Position numbers and translations under genes: made by a program. A DNA stretch of 32,000 nt from Phormidium tenue FACHB-1050 (lineage in GTDB: Bacteria > Cyanobacteriota > Cyanobacteriia > Pseudanabaenales > Pseudanabaenaceae), in NCBI RefSeq assembly GCF_014696925.1, contig NZ_JACJQY010000037.1, positions 1-32,000 of the forward strand, given 5' to 3'. Each line of letters starts with the position of its first letter. The first letter of the stretch is position 1. Under the pieces are notes generated by a model. It did not search any database. It was not told where the DNA came from and saw only the letters and a program-made list of their open reading frames with translations. This document shows, one piece after another, positions 6,540 through 31,090 of this stretch.

Positions 6540-6655
6540 TATAGCAAAGTAAGTTTTGCCAAGGACATAAAACCCAAGAATCGAGTGGCGGCGCTTCGCG
6601 CCGCCACTCGATTCTTGGGTTTTGGTTTGTACTAGCTAACTCTTTTTTTGCTATA
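6540..6655. mobile_element. MITE-like nested palindrome, copy A
   Basis: TATAGCAAAGTAAGTTTTGCC...GAGTGGCGGCGCTTCGCGCCGCCACTC...TTGCTATA. Aligns end to end with 23149-23266. Confidence 0.7.
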
Positions 6656-13041: not shown

Positions 13042-14202
13042 ATGGTAATGGACTACATCATTGAAGACTTGATGGAAGAGGTGGTAGAACGCAAAGGTTC
13101 TGACCTCCACATTTCCGCAGGACTTCCGCCTTACATTCGCATTAATGGTCACCTCACCCGTACCGATCGCGATCCACTTACCCCAGAAGAAACTCAGCGT
13201 TTGATTTTTGCGATGCTGAATAACAATCAGCGTAAAGCTCTCGAACAAAACTGGGAGTTAGACTGCTCCTATGGGGTTAAGGGACTTGCCAGATTTCGGG
13301 TGAATGTTTACAAAGATCGGGGAACCTATGCTGCTTGTCTACGGGCGCTTTCTTCCAAAATTCCTGATATGGATGATCTCAACTTGCCGCCGATTGTGCG
13401 TGAACTGAGTGAAAAGCCGCGTGGACTAGTGCTAGTTACAGGACCTACGGGTTCGGGTAAAACCACGACCTTAGCTGCGATGATCCAAACGATCAACAAA
13501 ACTCGTGCCGAACATATTCTCACGGTTGAAGATCCGATTGAATTTGTCTATGAATCCGTAAAAAGTGTGATCCACCAGCGTCAAGTTGGGGAAGATACTA
13601 AAACCTTTGCAAATGCGTTAAAAGCGGCTTTACGGGAAGATCCAGATGTAATTCTCGTAGGAGAAATGCGTGACTTAGAAACGATTCAGTTAGCTGTATC
13701 TGCTGCCGAAACAGGGCATCTTGTATTTGGCACATTGCATACTAGTTCTGCATCCCAAACCGTAGATCGCATGGTGGATGTATTTCCACCAGAGCAACAA
13801 GGACAAATTCGAGTACAGCTTTCTAACTCACTCGTAGCCGTGTTGAGTCAAACTCTTGTCTCACGTCATAATCCACAACCAGGGCAGTTTGGGCGAGTGA
13901 TGGCTCAGGAAATTATGGTGGTAACGCCTGCGATTTCTAACCTTATCCGTGAAGGTAAAACTGCACAAATGTATGGCTTTATCCAAACAGGTGGTAAAGA
14001 ATCAATGCAAACTCTTGAGTCGGTATTGGCAAAGTTATATATGGATGGCGACATTACGTTTGAAGCAGCAATGTCTAAGACTTCGCGTCCTGAAGAATTA
14101 TTACGTGTAGTTGGACCAAACCCTGCTCCTGTAATGAAGCGAAAAGCTGCTGGAGATTTGCGATCGCCAGATATGATCAAATCGCGATCAATCAGTGGTT
14201 AA
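13042..14202 (+). CDS. pilT: Twitching-motility retraction ATPase PilT
   Basis: GPTGSGKTTT, GEMRD, AISNLIREGKT. 386 aa. Confidence 0.92.
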   Translation: MVMDYIIEDLMEEVVERKGSDLHISAGLPPYIRINGHLTRTDRDPLTPEETQRLIFAMLNNNQRKALEQNWELDCSYGVKGLARFRVNVYKDRGTYAACLRALSSKIPDMDDLNLPPIVRELSEKPRGLVLVTGPTGSGKTTTLAAMIQTINKTRAEHILTVEDPIEFVYESVKSVIHQRQVGEDTKTFANALKAALREDPDVILVGEMRDLETIQLAVSAAETGHLVFGTLHTSSASQTVDRMVDVFPPEQQGQIRVQLSNSLVAVLSQTLVSRHNPQPGQFGRVMAQEIMVVTPAISNLIREGKTAQMYGFIQTGGKESMQTLESVLAKLYMDGDITFEAAMSKTSRPEELLRVVGPNPAPVMKRKAAGDLRSPDMIKSRSISG

Positions 14203-18662: not shown

Positions 18663-19166
18663 TTAATCAAAATAAAACAATGTGACAACCTTGCGTTGCT
18701 CTTCAGCATCCTGACAAGTTTGTAATAAAGTCTCGCTGCCATGAAACGCAAAGCAAATAAGTTGCTGACACTTAGAAATAATTTCTTGGTTGCATCGGAT
18801 ACTTGCTTCAGCCAAGGATAGGGTGTCATTCTCACCATGCTCAATTAAATGAATCACATTTTCTAGCTGTTCGCGAGATTCATAAGGCTGTCTATCGAGA
18901 CTTTGCGGCAAAATTACGGTCAACAAATTGGGGTCAGCACGTAAAGCTCCCCGAATCGCAGCAAAATTTGTACCTGTTGCACCAGAGGTAATAATACTGT
19001 TGCCAGATAAAGCCAAGGCATAGCTGAGCAGTTCGATCAGCAGTTGGTGAGTTAATGGCACATGGCGGGAGCCTAAAAATGCTATTCGCTTTGAGCCTTG
19101 CTGCTGTATGGTTGCCAGCTCTTGCAAAAAGTCGTCTAGCTTGGGTAGATTAATTGACTGAGTCAA
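18663..19166 (-). CDS. DprA/Smf-like Rossmann-fold (SLOG) protein
   Basis: RIAFLGSRHVPLTHQ...GNSIITSGATGTNFAAIRGAL...LTVILPQSL parallels the DprA core IAxVGSR...SGxAxGID..AH.gAL...AVL. 167 aa only. Confidence 0.5.
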   Translation of the reverse strand: MTQSINLPKLDDFLQELATIQQQGSKRIAFLGSRHVPLTHQLLIELLSYALALSGNSIITSGATGTNFAAIRGALRADPNLLTVILPQSLDRQPYESREQLENVIHLIEHGENDTLSLAEASIRCNQEIISKCQQLICFAFHGSETLLQTCQDAEEQRKVVTLFYFD

Positions 19167-19253
19167 ACAAATCCCTCTCGGTTACTACTTACTGAACGAA
19201 TACTTACACAATATCACTTAACCCTAGAGAAGCAAACCAAACTCACGTTGTAT

Positions 19254-19308
19254 TAGGACAAATCAAAACTCAAGAAGCGAGTGGTGGCGCTTCTTGGGTT
19301 TGTATCCT
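19254..19308. mobile_element. MITE-like palindrome, internally deleted copy C
   Basis: AGGACAAATCAAAACTCAAGAAGCGAGTGGTGGCGCTTCTTGGGTTTGTATCCT. Confidence 0.5.
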
Positions 19309-19463
19309 AACAAGACTGGCGACAGCTATAACATCACGAAAATATCGGAAGGCTCTGTCTTCCGATATTTTTTGGGATCGATTATTTTTTGTAAGCCCCT
19401 TAAGCGGCTGAATCATAAACACATGAATGCTGAGCGGGTGGGATAGTATCTCCAAAATATAAG

Positions 19464-19518
19464 AGTAACTTTTGCATAACTTTTGCATAACTTTTGCATA
19501 ACTTTTGCATAACTTTTA
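19464..19518 (+). repeat. Tandem 11-bp array, 5 units (nnTAACTTTTn)
   Basis: AGTAACTTTTG then CATAACTTTTG x3 then CATAACTTTTA. Confidence 0.95.
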
Positions 19519-19996
19519 GCTGGTGTAGCCAAAAATGATTCATATTACGATATTTCACATATTAATAATATTTTTTAATGCCAATAAAAAGTAATGCAGG
19601 TTTAGTCCTGCATTATTAGTTACTCACTTAGACATTCACTAGACAGTAAATGTTCCCAAATTATTTCCCAAATTATTTTTAAGGAACTATGTGAGTTTTA
19701 TTGGCTATGGCAAGACGAAAGGTAGAGGTTAGAACAAGTTCCCTAGTTTCTTGATTTACTTGCCATTCCAGAAAAAGTTAAGTGTTGCGTCATAAAGAGC
19801 TATTAAAGCCAAGACACCAGATCCCCTAAGTCTTTACTTCTAGATTTTTCTGACAATATTCAGTTCGTGTCGAGTTGCCCCCCAAAGACTTGCTAAAAAA
19901 CACCCTGATTTAATTCATTGGAGTAGTTTTTGGAATATTTTTCGATATTTCTGGCAAGTCAGAAGAAATTTTTAGTTCTTAAAGGATTGGATTACT

Positions 19997-21574
19997 ATGT
20001 CTAAAATTAGCAGACGTACAGCAATGCGTCTCGGACTCGGTGCTGGTGGTACAGCGATCGCCTCAGCAGCGTTCAGCAATCTTGGTTATGCCCAAGTTTT
20101 TTCTGATGATAGTTCGTATAGGTCACGTAGTCTACCACCGTTTTATGCTCGTGACTTTCGCTACCAGTCTCCGCTTCTACCAGTTCGTAGTGATAGCAAC
20201 ACGGACTACTACGAAATCAGGATGCAGAAAGGCTCCGCTGAGATTTTACCAAATATTCAAACCGAAATTTGGGGCTACAGTGGCATGGTGCCAGGTCCAT
20301 TGATCTATCAGCAACTAGGTCGCCAGTCTGTCGTTCGCTTCATTAATAATCTTGGTACAGATAGCCAAAATCGGAAAATTCATACATCAGTTCATTTGCA
20401 TGGCAGTGCCTCTCTCCCTCAATACGATGGATGGGCTGATGATATTACTAATCCTGGACAATACAAGGATTATATCTTTCCAAACAACCGCGCTGCGACA
20501 TTGTGGTATCACGATCATGGCGTACATCGGACAGCAGTAAATGCTTACATGGGACTAGCAGGCAATTATATTGTCGCCGATCCCAACGAAAATCCCAATA
20601 TTCCCAAAGGTGAATTTGATGTTCCAATTGTCTTGTCAGATAAACTTTTGGCTCGCAATGGCAGGATTGTTTACGCGGATAGCGGCGAAAAAGATGTTTT
20701 TGGAGATATCGTTTTAGTCAATGGTGTGCCTTGGCCGCGCATGGCAGTCAAACGTACTAAGTATCGGTTTCGTTTTTTAAATACGGGGATTTCTAGATCC
20801 TATACATTGAGACTGAGCAACGGTCAACCTTTGACTGTAATTGCTTCTGATGCTGGGCTGTTGCCATCTCCAGTGCAAACGCCTACTCTCATGATTGGTG
20901 TTGGCGAACGCTATGAGCTGGTGATTGATTTTGCCAGTTACCCAGCAGGTACTCAAATTGAGCTTCTCAGCAACGCAGTGGAGAACGATAGCCCCTTTGC
21001 CAGTACGCGGAAAATCATGCGGTTTGATGTAAGTGGTGGAGCCGTGTCTCATAACCCACCTTTACCAATCTTACTGCGTAATGATGGTTTCGATTTTAAT
21101 CGCAAACGTCAGGAATTATTATCTCGTGTTGTTCGTCGTCGCGAGTTTGTGTTCGGAAAGGATAACCTTCAGGACCAATGGACGGTTAATGGTCGCACTT
21201 GGGCGAATGGAGGGCTTGAGGCAAACCCTAGAGTAGGTGACGTGGAGATATGGAAATTTGTGAATGGCGGTGGTGGATGGCATCACCCAATTCATGTCCA
21301 CCTCGTCGATATGCTGATCTTAAGTCGCAACAAGCGACGTAAAGTGCAACCCTATGAAATGGGTTGGAAGGACGTATTTTACTTGGATGAAGGAGCGGAT
21401 ATCGAGGTTGTCGCTCAGTTTGGTCCCCATAATGGCAAGTATATGATGCACTGTCACAACTTGGTTCATGAAGATCACGATATGATGCGGGCTTTTGAAG
21501 TTGGTCAGGGTGGTCCAGATCCCGTAACAACTGCTCCTGCAAAGCCATATAACTCTAGCGTTCCACCACTCTAA
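19997..21574 (+). CDS. Tat-exported three-domain multicopper oxidase (CotA/bilirubin-oxidase-like)
   Basis: Twin-arginine SRRTAMRLGLGAGG. Copper ligand blocks HLHG, WYHDH, HPIHVHL, HCHNLVHEDHDMM. Confidence 0.9.
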   Translation: MSKISRRTAMRLGLGAGGTAIASAAFSNLGYAQVFSDDSSYRSRSLPPFYARDFRYQSPLLPVRSDSNTDYYEIRMQKGSAEILPNIQTEIWGYSGMVPGPLIYQQLGRQSVVRFINNLGTDSQNRKIHTSVHLHGSASLPQYDGWADDITNPGQYKDYIFPNNRAATLWYHDHGVHRTAVNAYMGLAGNYIVADPNENPNIPKGEFDVPIVLSDKLLARNGRIVYADSGEKDVFGDIVLVNGVPWPRMAVKRTKYRFRFLNTGISRSYTLRLSNGQPLTVIASDAGLLPSPVQTPTLMIGVGERYELVIDFASYPAGTQIELLSNAVENDSPFASTRKIMRFDVSGGAVSHNPPLPILLRNDGFDFNRKRQELLSRVVRRREFVFGKDNLQDQWTVNGRTWANGGLEANPRVGDVEIWKFVNGGGGWHHPIHVHLVDMLILSRNKRRKVQPYEMGWKDVFYLDEGADIEVVAQFGPHNGKYMMHCHNLVHEDHDMMRAFEVGQGGPDPVTTAPAKPYNSSVPPL

Positions 21575-21636
21575 ATGCGGCTGTAACCGTAAAACTAAAG
21601 CCACCAGAAATGATTTTCCGTTTGGAAGTTTGCCAT

Positions 21637-22491
21637 ATGATGTTTTCCCAAAGATTAGTCCAAATTGCCAAGGCTGGAACCATCGTGCTGACTTTGCTCT
21701 TTACGATGTTTGTGGTGATGCCATCATCCGCGATCGCTAGTGGTCATGGTCATGGAGAAGGACATAAGCGTGTGCCTAATTTTGAATATCCCTATCCGAT
21801 CTCCCAACGGCGGATCGATGCGGAACAACTTCTTAATCAAGGATTGAGCAAGGCTTATCAGCTCGATCTTCAGGGTGCGATCGCCGATTTAATTGAGGCG
21901 ACCAAAATCGATCCTACTGATGAAGATGCGTTTCGCTATCTGGGCGATGTTTACGTTGAGGCTGGCAATTTTACAGATGCGATCGCTGCTTATTCCTCTG
22001 CATTACGCTATCGTCCAGGCTTCTCGCATTTGTACAACAGTCGAGGTGAGGCTCACTTAGCGCTGAAGGAATATGATCTTGCGATCCGCGATTTCACGCG
22101 AGCGATTTCTGTCTATCCAGGTGAACCAAGAGGACACTACAACCGCAGTGTTGCCTATCGCAATATCAAAAGCTATGTCTTGGCGCTTAATGATTTACAG
22201 AATGCAATCCGTACTAGCAATCACACCTATGTAGATGCCTTTATTGATCGCAGTAAAATTCGGCAGATTTTAGGTGATGTCAAAGGTGCGATCGAAGACT
22301 ATCAAACTGCATCACTGTTGTTAGAGTCTCAGCCCGAAGAATTTCTCAATCAAGAAGACTTTGCAAACTATCAAAAGCTTCAAGTTGAGTATCAAAATAC
22401 AATTCAGACTGCTGAAGATATTAAGACAAAATTGCTCAGTAATTGTGATGAGCAACCAAATTTTATCGTAGATCAAAATCAATTTTCTTAA
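21637..22491 (+). CDS. Secreted/anchored TPR-repeat protein with His-rich GHGHGEGH N-terminus
   Basis: Hydrophobic leader ...VVMPSSAIASG, then GHGHGEGH. At least 4 TPR units (e.g. AFRYLGDVYVEAGNFTDAIAAYSSALRYRP). Starts a few tens of nt after the MCO stop. Alternative start at 21610. Confidence 0.75.
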   Translation: MMFSQRLVQIAKAGTIVLTLLFTMFVVMPSSAIASGHGHGEGHKRVPNFEYPYPISQRRIDAEQLLNQGLSKAYQLDLQGAIADLIEATKIDPTDEDAFRYLGDVYVEAGNFTDAIAAYSSALRYRPGFSHLYNSRGEAHLALKEYDLAIRDFTRAISVYPGEPRGHYNRSVAYRNIKSYVLALNDLQNAIRTSNHTYVDAFIDRSKIRQILGDVKGAIEDYQTASLLLESQPEEFLNQEDFANYQKLQVEYQNTIQTAEDIKTKLLSNCDEQPNFIVDQNQFS

Positions 22492-22501
22492 TGACTGATG
22501 T

Positions 22502-22627
22502 TACGTGGAAGCTTCCAATTCCCTCATTCCTAGTCCTTCTCCCTAAAGTGTAGATGGGAATAAGAAATTAGTCTTGCTCCCTCTCTCCCATCAAGGGATA
22601 GGGTGATGGTGGTGAGGGTTCCACGTA
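22502..22627. repeat. ~126-bp imperfect palindromic element
   Basis: Terminal inverted repeats TACGTGGAA / TTCCACGTA and CCCTCA / TGAGGG. Internal CTCTCCC...GGGATAGGG motifs. Confidence 0.55.
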
Positions 22628-22678
22628 GTTAATGAGAACTATGAATAAATGTGTCAACTCTGATGTGGAAATAAAAAA

Positions 22679-23080
22679 ATGAGAACAAATATAATTGACT
22701 CACTAAAAAGGATTAGTAATTTCGGGAAGCTAATTGCTATCTCGATTTTTACGCTATTGGTGCTGATGGTTGCTTTGAAAACAACCGATGGTGCTGAGTC
22801 TAGACCATCAAATGTTAGTCATTCTGAGGCTTCGGACTCGTTGTGCTATATGGTGACTTCCAAAGGTAAAGTGGTCGATCTCATGCATTTATGCAAGCAG
22901 AGCAATCCCACTAACTTAACTTCAGCATCCCAATCTCCCACGTTTGGCGTTTATCCCCAAATTGCTCGCGGACCGCAATCATATGCCAATTATAAGGGGG
23001 CTTTGTCTTATCCATCTCCACCCAACATTTACAACTATCAAGCGATGAACAATTTTGATAATCAGTTGTACGGCAACTAG
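22679..23080 (+). CDS. Small membrane-anchored/secreted hypothetical protein with LCYM..G..VDL..LC motif
   Basis: 133 aa. TM LIAISIFTLLVLMVAL. The Cys-bracketed motif is recurrent in small cyanobacterial exoproteins (from memory). Confidence 0.45.
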   Translation: MRTNIIDSLKRISNFGKLIAISIFTLLVLMVALKTTDGAESRPSNVSHSEASDSLCYMVTSKGKVVDLMHLCKQSNPTNLTSASQSPTFGVYPQIARGPQSYANYKGALSYPSPPNIYNYQAMNNFDNQLYGN

Positions 23081-23148
23081 ATTTATTTCCATCAAAAAAG
23101 GCGTGGTGCAAAAACTCTGGAGAGTTTCAAGATGCGACGTATGGTAGG

Positions 23149-23266
23149 TATAGCAATGTAAGTTTTGCTTAGGACATTAAACCCAAAAGATGAGTGGCGG
23201 CGCTTCGCGCCGCCACTCATCTTTTGGGTTTTGATTTTTGTCCGAGCTATCTCTTACATTGCTATA
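23149..23266. mobile_element. MITE-like nested palindrome, copy D (most complete)
   Basis: Perfect 14-nt termini TATAGCAATGTAAG / CTTACATTGCTATA. Central GATGAGTGGCGGCGCTTCGCGCCGCCACTCATC hairpin. Confidence 0.75.
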
Positions 23267-23347
23267 GTACGACTGCGCTACGGACTCCGCAAATCCTTGG
23301 AGATGTCGTTTATCCTTAAAACCCTTTCCAGACTTTTCCGCAATACT

Positions 23348-23378
23348 AAGGGCATACCCAGTGGGTATGCCCTTTTTT
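23348..23378 (+). terminator. Strong plus-strand intrinsic terminator
   Basis: GGGCATACCC-AGT-GGGTATGCCC followed by TTTTTT. Confidence 0.75.
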
Positions 23379-23910
23379 GATGGGAAGAAATCAATTGAGA
23401 TCTCTTTAATAAATGCGATCGCATTCTATAAATTCAGATGAAACTTTATTTCATCCTTAAATCTACACATCATTTAGATTTCGTAGTAGAAAGATAGCAT
23501 TTACACTTAACTAGTAAGTAATACCTAGTAATAATTAACTCCACATAATTACAAAACAAAATGAAAGTTTATAAAATTTATTGTATGTGTAATATAAATT
23601 TTGAAAATTTTATATTTAATTTTAAATAGTCACTTAGTAAAGAAAAAATTTACAAATATATAAACATAAAAAATAAACTTGCATAAGTAATCACTAATAA
23701 TTATCATCACGATTTATCTATATAAAAAATAGCCCTTTTGAAAGGTTGTTTTTCATTGATATTACATATACTTAACTCTATAGCTATTCAAGAAAATATT
23801 AGATGTTAAAAAAAAGAGATAACTTGCAGGATAAGCATATACAAAGCGATGTACGACTTGCTTTTGTCTGTTTAGAAGCTCAGTAAAACAACATCTATTA
23901 ATAATTTGCT

Positions 23911-24031
23911 GATAACTTTCAAGTAACTTTCAAGTAACTTTTTACTAACTTTCAAGTAACTTATTTGTAACTTTTTACTAACTTTCAAGTAATTTTCTGA
24001 TAACTTTTTACTAACTTATTGGTAACTTTTA
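23911..24031 (+). repeat. Tandem 11-bp array, 11 units (nGTAACTTTnn), with 33-bp higher-order periodicity
   Basis: GATAACTTTCA AGTAACTTTCA AGTAACTTTTT ACTAACTTTCA AGTAACTTATT TGTAACTTTTT ACTAACTTTCA AGTAATTTTCT GATAACTTTTT ACTAACTTATT GGTAACTTTTA. Confidence 0.95.
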
Positions 24032-24412
24032 ACGGTTGAATTTCTCAGCAAATTCAGCATTAATACGTTCATTCGCTAAACCTAGTGTGTAATTAATTTT
24101 GCAAAATAAATCACTCAAATCTGTAAATTTGCCCCCTCATATGAACATGGTTTACGGATTTATATTTGAAATTAATTGTGCCTAGTTGCTATTGCCTTGC
24201 TCTTGGAAAATCTATTGTGATACTTCCATTCTCTTCAGGATTACTGTTAAAAATACTCTCCGTAATTCCATTTTCTTTAACTTTTATTGCTGATTTCTTT
24301 GGAATTACGATGAATTTTATAGGGTTTTACTTATTGAGAATAGACAGTACTTTGCTCGACCTCTATCTCCATCAATCTTCAGCAAATTTATTGCAGTTAA
24401 GGGTTTAACGTT

Positions 24413-27400
24413 ATGGCATCTAGTTTTATCGTCAACAAAGCAGACCTCGAAAAAATCCTGTTTCAAATCAAGATCGCTGAGGATAGCTCCATCGGCTACC
24501 AGTCAGTGTCGGAAACTAAGACAATTCTTCAGTCGATCATGGATGCGTATGGTATTTCCGCCGCCAATGCAGCGCAGTTGCCTGCTGGTCTACGCACCGT
24601 CGATGGCACCTTCAACAGCCTCATCCCAGGGCGGAGCACGATCGGTGCGGCAGACACGCTATTTCCTCGCTTGACCGATCCAGTGTTCGTTAATGATGCT
24701 GATGGCGACCAGATGTCGTTTGGAGTTCCAAATGCGCCAGTCATCACAAATAATAACTACGATCCCCGCCTTAGTAGTACAAACCCACCTGAAGTCAATC
24801 CAGCTAGTGTTGCTGATGCCGATCCGCGCATTATTTCCAATTTGATCTCGGACATGTCTGTCAACAACCCAGCCGCGATCGATGCTTACTTTAATAACCC
24901 GTTGTCCCTCGCTCAGTTTGAAGCAGATCATCCCGGCATGATTCCAGTCAAGCCAGGCGATCTTCGGGCAGGAACTGGTAATTACCTTGCTATTACCAAT
25001 GCCGACCTCCAAACAATCCCCAACCAGTCCCCCGACATCGGGTTATCGTCTGGTTTCAACTCTTGGATGACCATCTTCGGTCAATTCTTCGACCACGGGC
25101 TCGATCTCGTTACCAAAGGCGGCAACGGCACAGTATATATTCCACTACAGGAGGACGATCCCCTGGTTGCAGGCAAAGATGGGCTCTTTAACACCGCCGA
25201 CGATCTCCCGCCGCAGCTCCGATTCATGGCGCTGACCCGCGCGACAACAACGATTGTGGATGGTGTTCCGCAGCACGAGAACAAGACAACCTCATGGATC
25301 GACCAGAACCAAACCTACACCTCTCATGCCTCGCATCAAGTGTTCCTGCGCGAATACAAGAGAGTCCCTGATCAGATAACCAACGCACCCGTAACGATCG
25401 CAACTGGTAAAGTACTTGATGGTTCGCTTGCAGGTTCGGTCTCTAACTGGGGTGAAGTCAAGGCGAATGCTAAGACCTATTTGGGCATCATCCTCAGTGA
25501 TTTCGATGTCCACAACGTGCCACTGCTACTGACTGATCAATACGGTAAATTCATTCCAGGAGCCAATGGCTATGCTCAAGTAGCCACTACCACTGGCTTT
25601 GTTGAGGGAACAGCAGCAGGCTTGGTTCTGCCTGCCAACACAGTTCGCACTAACCACGCATTCCTCGATGACATTGCCCACCATGCAGTACCTGGATTCT
25701 ATAGAAACAGTTCAGGAGATCTAGTCCCACAAACTGCGGACACAGATCCTGGTGTCGGCGACGATAACGATGCTACGACCTACGACGATGAAATGTTGAA
25801 CTCACATTTCATCACGGGTGACGGACGCGGCAACGAGAACATTGCGCTGACCGCAGTTCACTCCATCTTCCACTCCGAGCACAATCGTCTTGTCGAAGCA
25901 AATAAAGCAACCATTCTTGCGTCGAACGATCTGGATTTCCTAAATGAGTGGTTGCGAATTGACGTTACGGCAGTTCCGACCGCACCCAGTGATATTGCGG
26001 CTTTGGAATGGGATGGCGAACGCCTGTTTCAGGCAGCTCGATTCACCAATGAAATGCAATACCAGCATTTAGTGTTTGAAGAATTCGCACGCCGCATTCA
26101 GCCGATGATCGATCCTTTCGTCTTCAACAACAGCCCCGACATCGACCCATCAATCGTGGCGGAGTTTGCCCACACGGTGTATCGCTTCGGACATTCGATG
26201 CTAACTGGCACAGTTGATCGCTTAGAGAACGACCTGACGACCGTCAACGGAGAACCTGATCAGAAGACATTGCTGGCAGCGTTTCTTAACCCACAGGCCT
26301 ACATCGCCAGCGGAGCGGATATAGCAACCATCAACGCCAACCTAGTCCGAGGCTTGACCCGTGACGTAGGCAGCGGGATCGACGAGTTCATCGTGGACGA
26401 CTTGCGCAGCAATCTCTTGGGACTGCCGCTCGACCTTGGTGCGCTCAACATTGCCCGTGGTCGTGAAACTGGCGTTCCCTCGCTCAATGAAACCCGCAGG
26501 CAACTCTACGAAGGCACTGGCTTAGCTGACCTCAAGCCCTACACCAGCTGGGTTGATTTTTCCTTGAACATCAAAAACCAGCTCTCGGTTATCAACTTCA
26601 TCGCGGCTTACGGTACACATACGAGCATCACCTCACAATCAACCGTTGCTGGCAAACGGGCGGCAGCAGAGGAACTCGTCTTCGGTACAGAGGCTGACGG
26701 TATTACACCTTCGGACATAACTGATCGCCTCGACTTCCTGAACGCCACAGGCGCTTATGCTGGTGGCGATTTGGGTGGACTCAATCTGGTCGATTTCTGG
26801 ATCGGCGGGCTTGCCGAAGCGAATCCCGAATTCGGCGGCATGTTGGGTAGTACCTTCAACTTTGTGTTTGAATCCCAGATGGAGAACCTGCAAAACGGCG
26901 ATCGTTTCTACTATCTGAGCCGTACTCAGGGCATGAACTTGCTCAACCAGCTAGAGCCAAATACCTTCGCCGACATGGTGATGCGCAACACCGCGCTCGG
27001 CGACAAGTATGCGACCCATTTAAATGGATTTCTGTTCGTCACACCAGACTATATCCTCGAGCTAGATCGGGGCATTGCACAGGAAGACTATAACGGGACT
27101 GCCGCTGGCAAGGATCCGCTTGGAGGCACTCTCTTTAATCCCAAAGTTCAGCGCGACTACACAGGCAGCAGCATCGTCGATGGAAACCACGATTTCGGCG
27201 GTACTCTAAGGTTTACTGGTGGCGAACATGTTGTGATCGGCGGTACTGAAGGTAACGACAAACTATACAGCGACAAGGGTGACGATACCCTATGGGGCGA
27301 TGGTGGCAATGACTACATCAATGGTGGCGCTGGTGCTGACAACGTCTTCGGCGGCGAAGGCGACGACATTATCGAAGATCCATTTGGGGATGATATGTTG

Positions 27401-30400
27401 CGTGGTGAACAGGGCAACGATGTCATCACCAGTTCCCGTGGCTTGGATCTGATATTTGGTGACCAAGGTACCGACTATATCGTACTAGGTCAGGATGGTA
27501 GCGAAGTCTTCGCAGGTGCTGACGACGACTTCGTCCTTGGTGGTACTGGCGGCGACTTTCTGCTAGGCAATGAGGGCAGCGACTGGATCGAAGGCGGAGC
27601 TGGCTTCGACACACTGGCGGGTGACAACTCGGAACTGTTCTTCAACAGCCCGATCCTCGGTCATGATGTGTTATTCGGTCAGGGCGACGAAACCGACTAC
27701 GACGCAGAATCAGGCGACGATATCATGGGTTCTGGCGCGAGTGTCTACCGCTATGAAGGGATGTTCGGCTTTGACTGGGGCATTGCTAAGTACGACAACT
27801 CGCCCATTAAGTTCGACCTGAATTTCAATCTCGCTGCTCTCGGCACTCCGAACGATGTCTTACGCGATCGCTTTGATAACGTGGAAGCATTATCAGGTTG
27901 GAGGAATAATGACGAACTGTTTGGCGACGATCGCGGTCATGTTGCAGGTGCATCTCCCATCGCTTTCGATCCCGTCACCGCAGACCAACTGTTCTTCAGC
28001 ACTTTGCCGTTGGCTAATGCTCCTGCTGGGGCGATCGATGTATTGTTCAACAACTTGCTAACCAATGAGGGTGTTGATCGGATCACTGGCTTCAGAACTT
28101 GGTTTGGCGGCGCAGCAGTTACGCTCAACACCGTGGCTGGTACTGGCGCTGGCGACACATTCTTCCGCGATGGCAATATCCTTATGGGTGGCGACGGCAA
28201 CGATATCATCAAGGGACGTGGTGGTTTCGACATCATTGATGGCGATGCTTGGTTGAACGTGCGGATTAAAATCGACATCAACGGCACGATCTACTCGGCT
28301 GATTCGATGAGCAATGATACTACCGTTATGGGGCAATATGCTGGCAAGGTCTTTAACACCAACTCAGACGGCAGCCCAAATTACAGCAGTCCAGCCTTTG
28401 GCGGTGCATCGCTCACATCGTTGCTGCTAAACCGAACCATCAATCCTGGTCAGATGACCATCGTCCGTGAGATCTTGACCGACAATACCGACCTCACGGG
28501 TCTTAACAAAAACATCGACACCGCCGTCTTCCAAGGCAACTTCGCAGAATATGAAATTGAGGGCTTTAATACGCTCGGTCGGGCAACTGATGTCAATGGT
28601 GATGGTTTCATCTATGTCCGCGATCTCGACAATGGTGTCACCCGTCCTCCTGTTGTTGATCCGCTAACGGGCGTTGCTAGGATAGTCTCTGACGACACCG
28701 ATCTGATCAAGAACATCGAGCAGCTCCAGTTCGCCGATGTGACCATCCGTCTTGATGTTGTAGCGCCAACCGACATTCAGTTTAATGGTGTCACTCCAGC
28801 AGCAGGAAATGCATTTCCGCTTGCAGGTACGACGATCGCAACCCTGAGTACGACGGATGCCAATACGACCACGGGATTTGACTACTCGTTGTTGGTTGCG
28901 GGTAGCAGCGCTGGCTTTGCGGTAAGTCAGACAGGTGTTGTTACTGCCACAGCCAATATGGTTGGAAATCAGATCTACACACTTAACATCAGATCTACAA
29001 ATACAACAACAGGCGCTTTCCGCATTGAAACCTTTGAGATCAGAACTGGTGGTAATGGCGGAGGCGCTGATGCACTCACCGTAAATCCAGCGACCAACTT
29101 TGACAACATCATGTATGGCAATGCTGGCAACGACACGCTCAACGGTGGCACTCGCAACGACACCCTGTTCGGTCAGGATGGCAACGACACGCTCAACGGC
29201 GGCGATGGCAATGACACCTTGAACGGTGGTGCTGGTGTTGACAACCTGAACGGTGGCGCTGGCAACGACATATTGGTTGGTGGCGCTGGCAACGACATTG
29301 TAAACGGTGGTGCTGGCAACGACACAATCCGCTATACGGTCGATGCTGATCGTACCGACACGATCGATGGTGGTGCCGACAACGATACGCTGGTACTCAC
29401 TGGACGCGCTGGCACTCTCAACGAAAACCTTGCCGTGACATTCGACGGAACTGCCCTCAATGCGGTTGAAGGTGGCTCTGTGTCCAACGTTGAGTCTGTA
29501 ACCGTAGATCTGGGCGATGGCATCGATACTTTGACCTACGTCACTATCTCTGGAGTGCCAGTAGGAGTTACGGTTGATCTCGCTAATGGAACTGCGTCGG
29601 GATTCACCTCGGTCGCTAACATCGAGAACGTGACGGGTAACGGCGGAGCCGACAACATTACGGGCGATGCTAACAACAACGTCCTGAGCGGTGGTGGCAA
29701 CAACGACATCATCAGCGGTGGTGCTGGTAATGACACGATTAATGGCGGTATTGGCACTGACACAGTCGTAGAATCTGGCGATTTCAACTTTGTCCTGACT
29801 AATAACCAACTGACAGGCAACGGTACTGATACCCTAATCAGTATCGAACAGGCTATCTTGACTGGTGGTTCTGGCAACAATACCTTTAACGTATCTGGTT
29901 TCGGCGGTACAGTCACGATTAATGGAGGTGATGGCACTGACACATTAATAGATTCAGGGAATGTTAACTTTGTCTTGTCCGACACTACCCTAACGGGCAA
30001 CGGTACTGACACGCTAACTTCCATCGAACTGGCTACTTTGACAGGCGGTGGTGGCAACAACACCATTAACGCATCTGGTTTCAGCGGTGCTGTCACCCTC
30101 AACGGTGCTGGTGGCAACGATACCTTGACGGGTGGCAATGGCGCTGACACCCTCATCGGTGGTACTGGCAATGACTCTGTCATCGGTGGCACAGGCAACG
30201 ACACAATTCGCTATACGGTCGATGCGGACGGAACCGACACGGTAAATGGTGATGCCGACAGCGATACGCTGGTGCTCACTTCCAACGGCGGCAACCAAAA
30301 CCTCACCGTAACATTCAACGGAACCTCAATCACCAACTTTGAAGGCGGAACAGTTACCAACGTCGAGTTTATAACTGCTGATCTGGGTGCTGGTGCTGGT

Positions 30401-31090
30401 GATACCCTGACCTACAATGCGCCAGGCGGTGTCACAGTCAATCTATCTACTGGAACTGCATCTGGGTTCATCTCAAGCGCATCTGGGTTGCCTGCGATCG
30501 CCAACATTGAGAACGTGACCAGTAATGGTGGCATCGACAGCCTGTTTGGCGATCTCAATGCCAACGTGTTGAATAGTGGTGGTGCCGACGACACAATCGA
30601 CGGCGCGGGCGGAAACGACACGATAAACGGCGGTCTGGGTGCTGACAGACTTACAGGCGGTTTGGGTGTTGATACTTTCGTCTTTCAGTTTGGTCAGTCT
30701 CAGGTGAACCTCGGATTCGATAGAATTACCGACTTTACTTTTGGTACTGATAGAATTGATTTGCTCACAGGTGGAGGAAATGCCACTTCTGCTCCCCTTA
30801 GCTTTAGTCGTGCGGCTGACAATAGCACTGCATCGACCTTGCAGCTTCTTGCTCAGTCAGTCTTTAACGATGCTAACGGTTTGCTTGCAGGGAACCAAGC
30901 ATTGGCAGCCAACAGTGCTGCCATTGTAAGCACCACAGCAGCAAGTGCGCTTGGAGTTGGAACTTACCTCATTATTAACGATGGTACTGCTGGATTCAAT
31001 ACTAATAACGATCTGTTTATTAATATCACTGGATACCAAGGCGCACTCCCCGGACTAGGCACAATCACACCAAATAGTGTCTTTGCTTAG
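24413..31090 (+). CDS. Giant animal-heme-peroxidase / RTX Ca-binding repeat protein (peroxicin, MopA-like), probable T1SS substrate
   Basis: 2225 aa. Distal-His block FGQFFDHGLDL, proximal-His block AVHSIFHSEHNRL, LDLGALNIARGRETGVPSLNE. Several GGxGxDxL nonapeptide blocks, a cadherin/Ig-like segment and a non-repeat C-terminal tail. No N-terminal signal peptide. Confidence 0.92.
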   Translation: MASSFIVNKADLEKILFQIKIAEDSSIGYQSVSETKTILQSIMDAYGISAANAAQLPAGLRTVDGTFNSLIPGRSTIGAADTLFPRLTDPVFVNDADGDQMSFGVPNAPVITNNNYDPRLSSTNPPEVNPASVADADPRIISNLISDMSVNNPAAIDAYFNNPLSLAQFEADHPGMIPVKPGDLRAGTGNYLAITNADLQTIPNQSPDIGLSSGFNSWMTIFGQFFDHGLDLVTKGGNGTVYIPLQEDDPLVAGKDGLFNTADDLPPQLRFMALTRATTTIVDGVPQHENKTTSWIDQNQTYTSHASHQVFLREYKRVPDQITNAPVTIATGKVLDGSLAGSVSNWGEVKANAKTYLGIILSDFDVHNVPLLLTDQYGKFIPGANGYAQVATTTGFVEGTAAGLVLPANTVRTNHAFLDDIAHHAVPGFYRNSSGDLVPQTADTDPGVGDDNDATTYDDEMLNSHFITGDGRGNENIALTAVHSIFHSEHNRLVEANKATILASNDLDFLNEWLRIDVTAVPTAPSDIAALEWDGERLFQAARFTNEMQYQHLVFEEFARRIQPMIDPFVFNNSPDIDPSIVAEFAHTVYRFGHSMLTGTVDRLENDLTTVNGEPDQKTLLAAFLNPQAYIASGADIATINANLVRGLTRDVGSGIDEFIVDDLRSNLLGLPLDLGALNIARGRETGVPSLNETRRQLYEGTGLADLKPYTSWVDFSLNIKNQLSVINFIAAYGTHTSITSQSTVAGKRAAAEELVFGTEADGITPSDITDRLDFLNATGAYAGGDLGGLNLVDFWIGGLAEANPEFGGMLGSTFNFVFESQMENLQNGDRFYYLSRTQGMNLLNQLEPNTFADMVMRNTALGDKYATHLNGFLFVTPDYILELDRGIAQEDYNGTAAGKDPLGGTLFNPKVQRDYTGSSIVDGNHDFGGTLRFTGGEHVVIGGTEGNDKLYSDKGDDTLWGDGGNDYINGGAGADNVFGGEGDDIIEDPFGDDMLRGEQGNDVITSSRGLDLIFGDQGTDYIVLGQDGSEVFAGADDDFVLGGTGGDFLLGNEGSDWIEGGAGFDTLAGDNSELFFNSPILGHDVLFGQGDETDYDAESGDDIMGSGASVYRYEGMFGFDWGIAKYDNSPIKFDLNFNLAALGTPNDVLRDRFDNVEALSGWRNNDELFGDDRGHVAGASPIAFDPVTADQLFFSTLPLANAPAGAIDVLFNNLLTNEGVDRITGFRTWFGGAAVTLNTVAGTGAGDTFFRDGNILMGGDGNDIIKGRGGFDIIDGDAWLNVRIKIDINGTIYSADSMSNDTTVMGQYAGKVFNTNSDGSPNYSSPAFGGASLTSLLLNRTINPGQMTIVREILTDNTDLTGLNKNIDTAVFQGNFAEYEIEGFNTLGRATDVNGDGFIYVRDLDNGVTRPPVVDPLTGVARIVSDDTDLIKNIEQLQFADVTIRLDVVAPTDIQFNGVTPAAGNAFPLAGTTIATLSTTDANTTTGFDYSLLVAGSSAGFAVSQTGVVTATANMVGNQIYTLNIRSTNTTTGAFRIETFEIRTGGNGGGADALTVNPATNFDNIMYGNAGNDTLNGGTRNDTLFGQDGNDTLNGGDGNDTLNGGAGVDNLNGGAGNDILVGGAGNDIVNGGAGNDTIRYTVDADRTDTIDGGADNDTLVLTGRAGTLNENLAVTFDGTALNAVEGGSVSNVESVTVDLGDGIDTLTYVTISGVPVGVTVDLANGTASGFTSVANIENVTGNGGADNITGDANNNVLSGGGNNDIISGGAGNDTINGGIGTDTVVESGDFNFVLTNNQLTGNGTDTLISIEQAILTGGSGNNTFNVSGFGGTVTINGGDGTDTLIDSGNVNFVLSDTTLTGNGTDTLTSIELATLTGGGGNNTINASGFSGAVTLNGAGGNDTLTGGNGADTLIGGTGNDSVIGGTGNDTIRYTVDADGTDTVNGDADSDTLVLTSNGGNQNLTVTFNGTSITNFEGGTVTNVEFITADLGAGAGDTLTYNAPGGVTVNLSTGTASGFISSASGLPAIANIENVTSNGGIDSLFGDLNANVLNSGGADDTIDGAGGNDTINGGLGADRLTGGLGVDTFVFQFGQSQVNLGFDRITDFTFGTDRIDLLTGGGNATSAPLSFSRAADNSTASTLQLLAQSVFNDANGLLAGNQALAANSAAIVSTTAASALGVGTYLIINDGTAGFNTNNDLFINITGYQGALPGLGTITPNSVFA

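Follow-up and report, generated by a model that had tools for sequence, protein, structure and literature searches.

Tandem 11-bp TAACTTT arrays upstream of two secreted-oxidase loci in Pseudanabaena: candidate stacked operators of one response regulator

A 32,000-nucleotide stretch of Phormidium tenue FACHB-1050 (contig NZ_JACJQY010000037.1, positions 1 to 32,000; hereafter the window) contains two tandem arrays of an 11-bp unit built on the core TAACTTT: array P, upstream of a gene for an animal heme peroxidase with RTX repeats, and array M, upstream of a multicopper oxidase (MCO) operon. The window is cyanobacterial (Pseudanabaena) chromosome and carries obg, miaA, and pilB-pilT-pilC. Sequence comparison inclines us, slightly past an even balance, to read the arrays as stacked operator sites of one OmpR/PhoB-type winged-helix response regulator, distinct from a canonical Pho box. 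We draw this reading from an invariant 8- to 9-bp core, free linkers, an 11-bp register, a single orientation, and a fixed offset to promoter-like hexamers. The repeat features are as follows (labels beginning with L denote comparison loci; TRF, Tandem Repeats Finder).

23899 to 23909, + strand: degenerate 12th unit, TAATAATTTGC, preceding array P in register (two core mismatches; kept in all strain alleles).
23910 to 24030, + strand: array P, 11 head-to-tail 11-bp units of the form NNN-TAACTTT-N (TRF, unit table, orthologous arrays).
19463 to 19517, + strand: array M, 5 units of the form GAG/GCA-TAACTTTT (TRF, orthologous arrays in L003, L070, L124, and L205-L214).

Parsed in register from 23910, array P resolves into 11 units with zero gaps (units 1-6 in order, TGATAACTTTC, AAGTAACTTTC, AAGTAACTTTT, TACTAACTTTC, AAGTAACTTAT, and TTGTAACTTTT; units 7-11, TACTAACTTTC, AAGTAATTTTC, TGATAACTTTT, TACTAACTTAT, and TGGTAACTTTT). 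TRF reported it as 23913-24030 with period 11 x 10.7 copies (73% match) and, at a longer period, as 23913-24017 with period 33 x 3.2 copies (87% match). TAA and TT are present in 11/11 units and C in 10/11, each unit having a T-rich tail. These results bear out a preliminary description of this DNA, which had proposed 11 gapless 11-bp units with a fixed TAAC and a T-rich tail, placed 380-500 bp upstream of the peroxidase/RTX gene. The measured distance to the peroxidase ATG (24413) is 382-503 bp, and the gene identities given in that description were right according to Pfam. It had also held the array to be neither coding nor a CRISPR, and we agree: all three + frames through the array are closed by TAA in every unit, and the units are contiguous, without the unique spacers that define a CRISPR. 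The GC content of array P is 22%. In the window as a whole, TAACTTT occurs 23 times, compared with 6.5 +/- 2.5 times in shuffles, and 13 of the 23 copies fall inside arrays P and M; the longest period-11 run of identical 6-mers is 7, versus 2 in every shuffle. Arrays P and M are far beyond chance.

Array M lies 4.4 kb from array P. TRF placed array M at 19466-19517, with TAACTTTTGCA x 4.7 copies that are 100% identical and on the same strand as array P; four of the five units are identical (GCATAACTTTT). That the same core recurs in the same orientation at the multicopper oxidase had been noticed in the preliminary description, and the link extends to relatives of the window, since an array with this core occupies the orthologous MCO-operon position in four other Pseudanabaena lineages:

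Window: 5 units, linker TGCA.
Pseudanabaena minima (L003): 4 units, linker TAAG/TAAA.
Pseudanabaena metagenome-assembled genome (MAG; L070): 4-5 units, linker TAAA/TATC.
Metagenome relative with 84% MCO identity (L124): 5 units, alternating linkers TTAA/CGG, giving a 22-bp super-repeat.
All 20 strain contigs of the 97% clade: 6 units, one of them 10 bp long, linker TAAG/TAAA/CAAG.

Among these orthologous arrays, the core is kept at 4-6 copies, the linkers are wholly different, and the flanks are conserved, the downstream flank reading ...ATTC.TAT.AC.AT.TTT. The flanks in the window match those of P. minima Chao 2107 (L003) nearly base for base. L124 and L205-L214 were reached via protein homology and not via the motif and are therefore unbiased for the core. 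The MCO array is the same in 20/20 strain contigs of the 97% clade (L205-L214 and L380-L389) and is not present in relatives with 70% and 67% identity.

Array P, in contrast to the MCO array of the same clade, varies among strains. Peroxidase orthologues with arrays were reached through members of the MCO cluster; they lie on syntenic Pseudanabaena MAG contigs that share ~97% identity with the window over 21 kb. Orthologues of array P have 8 or 11 units and form five alleles:

11 units: window, L206/L208, and L380.
8 units: L205/L207 and L381.

The 11-unit alleles are duplications of different 33-bp blocks (AAG-TTG-TAC in L206 and AAG*-TGA-TGC in L380), which makes at least two separate duplication events, each of 33 bp and each at its own position. 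Unit 1 and the final two units are fixed across alleles. The alleles differ at linker positions only, with zero core substitutions; between L205 and L381, for example, there are 5 differences in 32 linker nt and 0 in 56 core nt. Neighboring DNA is ~97% identical between the strains, and the arrays are variable spots within it. Variation in unit number had been anticipated in the preliminary description, and it is found here as 8 versus 11 units in closely related strains. The triplet period of 33 bp, taken there to be three helical turns, has to be divided. A 33-bp super-repeat is present and covers units 2-10 (TAC-type units 4, 7, and 10; AAG-type units 2, 5, and 8). A functional three-turn spacing was rejected because sister arrays have 22-bp super-periods or none; judging from the alleles, the 33-bp block is the duplication unit and would reflect the history of the array rather than its function.

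Pooling 38 distinct units from 19 arrays gave the motif V-TAACTTT-Y. TAA and the first T after the C are invariant in the 38 units, the C is found in 37/38, and the next two T positions are found in 37/38 and 34/38. The base before TAA is A in 17 units, G in 14, C in 7, and T in 0, and none of the window's 16 units has a T there either. Information content is 1.4-2.0 bits at core positions versus 0.1-0.6 bits in the linker, with ~0.1-0.3 bits at the two outer linker positions.

To place the motif in a wider context, 185,579 species genomes were scanned for three phased TAACTTT cores, which yielded at least 120 matching genomes. Pseudanabaena-group genomes account for 10 of 120 among the matches listed, from a small genus, and 2 of these 10 are the MCO locus itself (L003 and L070). 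In viral contigs, control cores of the same composition gave 35, 46, and 49 loci versus 44 for TAACTTT. Because control cores are equally common there, we read hits in other phyla as background 11-bp tandem repeats, whereas the Pseudanabaena enrichment is a real signal; a universal cross-phylum TAACTTT motif was rejected on the same counts. Other Pseudanabaena arrays precede unrelated genes, namely, those for a STAS anti-sigma antagonist with dnaK (two species), a secreted DPBB protein, a sugar transferase, and uncharacterized exported proteins. In 7/9 readable Pseudanabaena-group loci, the array is co-oriented with a downstream gene <600 bp away.

The arrays also keep a regular distance to hexamers that resemble promoter elements. 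The candidate features at the two window loci are as follows.

24036 to 24041, + strand: -35-like hexamer TTGAAT, 13 nt after the start of the last array P core (proposed from same-offset hexamers elsewhere).
24059 to 24064, + strand: possible, weak -10-like hexamer ATTAAT, 17 nt after the -35-like hexamer (read from sequence).
24071 to 24412, + strand: putative ~340-nt non-coding leader of the peroxidase mRNA (ORF break, no Rfam match; ORF, open reading frame).
19546 to 19551, + strand: candidate -10-like hexamer TACGAT, 36 nt after the start of the last array M core.

Elsewhere, -35-like hexamers lie at offsets of 13-18 from the last core (TTGATA in L042 and GTGACA in L038). In 4/9 independent array families (MCO, L038, L042, and L063/L090), the last core is followed at a distance of 35-37 nt by the start of a TAnnnT hexamer (null 0.082 per site, P = 0.004). 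At the MCO locus, the hexamer at offset 35-36 is kept in all four species while the spacer has diverged (TACGAT, TACGAT, TACCAT, and TAAAAT). With these assignments, the last array P core would lie at about -48 to -42, and the array would reach about -158. The peroxidase leader is probably non-coding because its only sizeable ORF (24166-24408, 80 aa) is disrupted by a 1-nt indel in L205/L206. Folding of this leader was not significant (z = -1.4), and Rfam and tRNA scans found nothing above any family threshold (whole window at gathering thresholds; 19100-24500 at E <= 1).

Operators of the OmpR/PhoB/PhoP family, such as the Escherichia coli Pho box, the OmpR sites F1-F3, the TTAACA repeats of Bacillus subtilis PhoP, and the 11-nt units of Streptomyces PhoP, are bound by winged-helix regulators cooperatively and head to tail at a 10-11 bp period, and the operator ends near -35. 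The arrays resemble them in having head-to-tail direct repeats at such a period and in the split of each unit into a conserved core and a free linker; they differ in being much longer and in varying in copy number between strains by block duplication. Cooperative binding to direct repeats is the best-fitting architecture we can offer on this comparison. Each 11-bp unit would comprise an 8- to 9-bp recognition core (V-TAACTTT-Y) and 2-3 free linker bases, and regulator monomers would bind the repeats head to tail and polymerize cooperatively along the DNA. Array P would adjoin a weak sigma-70-type promoter that drives the peroxidase/RTX gene via the ~340-nt leader, and curvature of the phased T-tracts could help the regulator filament or the RNA polymerase alpha subunits to engage that promoter. 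Since the same operator occurs in the same orientation at both loci, five times before the MCO operon, one lineage-specific regulator may serve both secreted oxidases. Multi-unit blocks would be gained or lost by slippage or unequal exchange; the altered number of sites plausibly changes output or sensitivity and would leave the core promoter untouched. From these data we infer that a protein binds, to which family the regulator belongs, that it activates rather than represses, and where transcription starts. Another system with a comparable layout is the parC centromere of plasmid R1, in which ten 11-bp iterons bound by ParR load a protein filament. Array P shares with parC about ten direct 11-bp repeats. 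Unlike parC, the arrays are chromosomal, stand before metabolic genes at several loci without par genes, and are conserved in position at the MCO operon. Consensus sites for NtcA (GTA-N8-TAC), HLR1/RpaB, Fur, and IHF were compared with the units by eye and set aside for misfits of spacing and core.

Several points weigh against stacked operator sites. ATTAAT matches the -10 consensus at 4/6, making for a weak -35/-10 assignment at array P, and 5/9 array families are without TAnnnT at the common offset. The genes downstream of different arrays share no clear common functional theme, and no response-regulator gene lies within the window. To our knowledge, known OmpR/PhoB-type operators have far fewer than 11 sites. 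Other short tandem duplications of functionless appearance occur in these intergenic regions, indicating that slippage is generally active there. Finally, 6/12 of the Pseudanabaena-group loci in the unit table were picked by a pattern requiring three perfect cores; the unbiased loci (L124, L205-L214, L380-L389, and the window) carry the same core as the pattern-picked ones.

The alternative that survives best, an unlikely one in our estimate, is that the arrays act independently of a dedicated protein, as curved DNA or a UP-like element whose phased T-tracts would bend the DNA before the promoter and thereby stimulate RNA polymerase, or would attract nucleoid proteins. The array lies directly upstream of -35-like hexamers, the place from which UP elements and activating curved DNA exert their effect, and it is 22% GC. 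Like phased A/T-tract curved DNA, each unit has a T3-T5 tract, and predicted curvature is high. In the Bolshoy-Trifonov wedge model, 141-bp segments centered on the two arrays had end-to-end/contour ratios of 0.81 and 0.79, compared with a window median of 0.965 and 0.947 +/- 0.038 for array shuffles. Both arrays are thus predicted to be among the ~1% most curved segments of the window, in line with the strong intrinsic bending that had been suggested for array P. The bend would be weaker than that of an A5N5 control (0.64 vs 0.81 for the array). The perfect helical phasing claimed with it does not hold: the period is exactly 11.0 bp, not 10.5 bp, and on 10.5-bp B-DNA it accumulates ~17 degrees of drift per unit and ~170 degrees over array P. 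In addition, phased T-tracts alone would suffice for such an element, yet the non-tract TAAC is the most invariant part of the unit and the preceding base is never T in the 38 units. Because the most conserved bases lie outside the T-tract, curvature would be a contributing property and not the whole explanation.

Variation in unit number raises the question of a contingency locus, in which slippage would switch or tune oxidase expression within populations, as the preliminary description had proposed for array P. Five alleles of 8 or 11 units in ~97% identical strains, with at least two independent 33-bp duplications, are what such a locus might produce, and metagenome contigs that end in the spacer upstream of the array could, weakly, reflect population heterogeneity. 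We think phase variation rather improbable. The array is non-coding and stands upstream of the -35-like hexamer, so changes in unit number alter neither promoter spacing nor a reading frame; the units are imperfect (73% match), two sizes have been seen, and the MCO array is identical in 20 strain contigs. A contingency switch is not indicated. Since array P stands 5' of the -35-like element, its variation could amount at most to a copy-number rheostat, which is possible.

Both arrays could also be neutral minisatellites, functionless products of slippage in AT-rich intergenic DNA that are shared by chance or descent. Consistent with this, copy number and block structure differ between strains, small tandem duplications occur nearby, and in viral contigs 11-bp tandem repeats are about as frequent with one AT-rich 7-mer core as with another. 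Neutral turnover should, however, strike the core as well, yet linkers are replaced between species while the 7 core positions stay identical. Neutrality is also hard to square with the recurrence of the core at unrelated loci in Pseudanabaena specifically, with the fixed distance to promoter-like hexamers, and with the orientation bias, and we consider it doubtful.

The resemblance to Pho boxes is close enough to ask whether the arrays are canonical SphR/PhoB sites, placing both oxidases in the phosphate-starvation regulon. In the cyanobacterial Pho box, CTTAACCT is repeated three or more times, with 3-bp linkers between the copies (Su et al. 2007, PMC1906773). Such boxes stand before genes of phosphate acquisition (pst, sphX, phoA, nucH, and phosphatases). 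Arrays of 11 and 5 units exceed this minimum of direct repeats at an 11-bp period, and TAAC(C/T)T resembles the published boxes TTTAACTT, CTTAACTT, and CCTAACTT. The two also share an 8-bp core with a 3-bp linker and a place on the coding strand upstream of the promoter. Synechocystis PhoB, on the other hand, requires a TTAA core, mutation of which abolishes binding (PMC11126600). The arrays have VTAA in place of TTAA, the base before TAA being A, G, or C in 38/38 distinct units; they have 5-11 units versus ~3; and no pst, pho, or phosphatase gene is found among the array-associated genes. Tandem TTAAYYW boxes were not found in 147 kb of Pseudanabaena loci. Membership among canonical Pho boxes was ruled out by the missing TTAA core, and a phosphate regulon is correspondingly improbable. 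Because the architecture matches while TTAA and pho genes are missing, a divergent or different regulator of a Pho-box-like kind would better suit the arrays. A point in favor of Pho boxes comes from another cyanobacterium: in L114 (Merismopediaceae MAG, 997-1040), four TTAACTTT units with an 11-bp period lie 264 bp upstream of a gene for a 1172-aa GDPD and phytase-like protein, and this looks like a genuine Pho box array.

It is very improbable that the array acts as RNA or coding sequence, whether as a transcript repeat element, a small repetitive peptide, or tandem -10 boxes: each TAACTT fits TAnnnT, units 1, 9, and 11 fit TGnTAnnnT, and a 38-aa minus-strand ORF (23872-23988) that spans part of the array would be kept in frame by 33-bp indels, but that ORF starts with TTG and is of low complexity, the + frames are closed by TAA, the MCO arrays have lengths not divisible by 3 (55, 65, and 44 bp), Rfam yields no match, and direct repeats give no RNA structure. 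We discarded both this ORF and the indel-broken 80-aa ORF of the leader as coding candidates. A translational role has been proposed for the TAACTGA heptamer repeats of Beggiatoaceae and Cyanobacteria, which lie immediately upstream of start codons (PMC4679880). Those heptamers, and likewise the cyanobacterial short tandemly repeated repetitive (STRR) heptamers, are like the arrays short, intergenic, lineage-restricted direct repeats of varying copy number that share TAACT; they differ in having a 7-bp period without linker at the start codon, versus an 11-bp period with a 4-bp linker 380-500 bp upstream, beside promoter-like hexamers.

The genes that the stacked operator sites would control are as follows.

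24413 to 31090, + strand: 2225-aa animal-heme-peroxidase and RTX protein (MopA-like), the probable target gene (Pfam).
19997 to 23080, + strand: MCO operon, encoding a multicopper oxidase with a twin-arginine (Tat) signal, an exported His-rich TPR protein, and a 133-aa membrane protein (Pfam, N-terminal sequences).

Pfam identified An_peroxidase (1.2e-55) and HemolysinCabind (4.4e-46) in the peroxidase. Its ORF has a GC content of 52% versus ~42% for neighboring DNA. Homology searches (a metagenome scan, 80 loci, and a protein search) returned no cyanobacterial orthologue. Outside this clade, the best metagenome locus reached 69% identity and the best full-coverage protein 64%, with partial alignments up to 75%; named homologues belong to Alpha- or Betaproteobacteria, and repeats in the metagenome loci are GC-rich. 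None of the homologues from those searches has an array upstream, and the gene is not downstream of the MCO operon in more distant relatives. The GC contrast, the proteobacterial homologues, and the absence of the gene from distant relatives together suggest that the peroxidase/RTX gene was probably acquired horizontally.

The multicopper oxidase has three domains and starts at 19997 (Pfam). The window MCO had no exact protein match in the collection, and relatives were used instead. The three-gene order of its operon is kept in L121-L124 and L205-L214, including relatives down to 67% identity. The TPR protein (21610-22491) has an N-terminal signal/anchor followed by a His-rich GHGHGEGH stretch, which suggests an exported metal-handling partner of the oxidase; a SARP-like regulator, raised by a weak BTAD match, was rejected in view of the signal peptide and the lack of a DNA-binding domain. 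Bacterial Mn(II) oxidation has been linked to two enzyme classes, MCOs and MopA-like peroxidases (PMC6247904), and extracellular, protein-dependent oxidation of Mn(II) has been reported for a Pseudanabaena isolate (PMC6890756). In the window, the genes for a Tat-exported MCO and a MopA-like peroxidase/RTX protein are neighbors.

If the arrays are operator stacks, they would constitute a cis-element and regulon not described before, in a cyanobacterial genus that is common and forms blooms and biofilms, and would link an MCO with a MopA-like peroxidase, both of classes associated with Mn(II) oxidation. More speculatively, a Pseudanabaena-specific regulon built on expandable V-TAACTTT-Y stacks could tie the MCO and the acquired peroxidase to one and the same regulator, with gain and loss of 33-bp blocks serving as a heritable rheostat for the level of peroxidase expression in each strain and the foreign gene captured through amplification of a host operator; we offer this broader scheme as a long shot. 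The 8- and 11-unit alleles in near-identical strains are a natural experiment on operator number and expression, and they bear on how a horizontally acquired gene falls under host control. Were the arrays only curved DNA or neutral minisatellites, the finding would be ordinary.

Further observations concern the DNA around the arrays. One conserved box adjoins array M:

19445 to 19457, + strand: box AGTATCTCCAAAA, directly 5' of array M (alignment of the window, L205, L003, and L070).

It is kept in four Pseudanabaena lineages although the surrounding sequence diverges. In the 20 strain contigs of the 97% clade, the 10-bp unit is the fourth (AAGTAACTTC), which puts the final two units out of register with units 1-4 by -1. 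Between array M and the MCO start codon, a putative 439-nt leader (19558-19996) folds better than shuffles (z = -2.85), and in L121 and L124 conservation is strong over the ~300 nt that lead up to the start codon; the region may hold a structured leader or a second, proximal promoter. Further small tandem duplications in it (19653-19678 and 19594-19615) differ between strains: TTCCCAAATTAT is present x2.2 in the window and L205 and as a single copy in P. minima, and L205 has a 14-bp duplication inside a hairpin of the region.

Past the MCO operon, a terminator-like hairpin at 23348-23374 (AAGGGCATACCC..GGGTATGCCCTT followed by a T-run) lies ~270 nt beyond the operon end and is kept in all strains, perhaps the mark of a short transcript or of a second terminator. 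Contigs L209, L210, L211, L213, and L214 break off within the 1.3-kb spacer that separates the 133-aa gene from the peroxidase; these ends may be assembly breaks at repeats or polymorphic elements. The RTX part of the peroxidase gene (29123-30204) contains nested 27-, 54-, and 180-bp coding repeats. A palindromic element resembling a miniature inverted-repeat transposable element (MITE) forms a 47-nt perfect hairpin at 23182-23228, with a related copy at 6540-6654. L205 carries an extra ~120-nt MITE-like copy (13326-13441) between the 133-aa gene and the array that the window is without, an insertion polymorphism.

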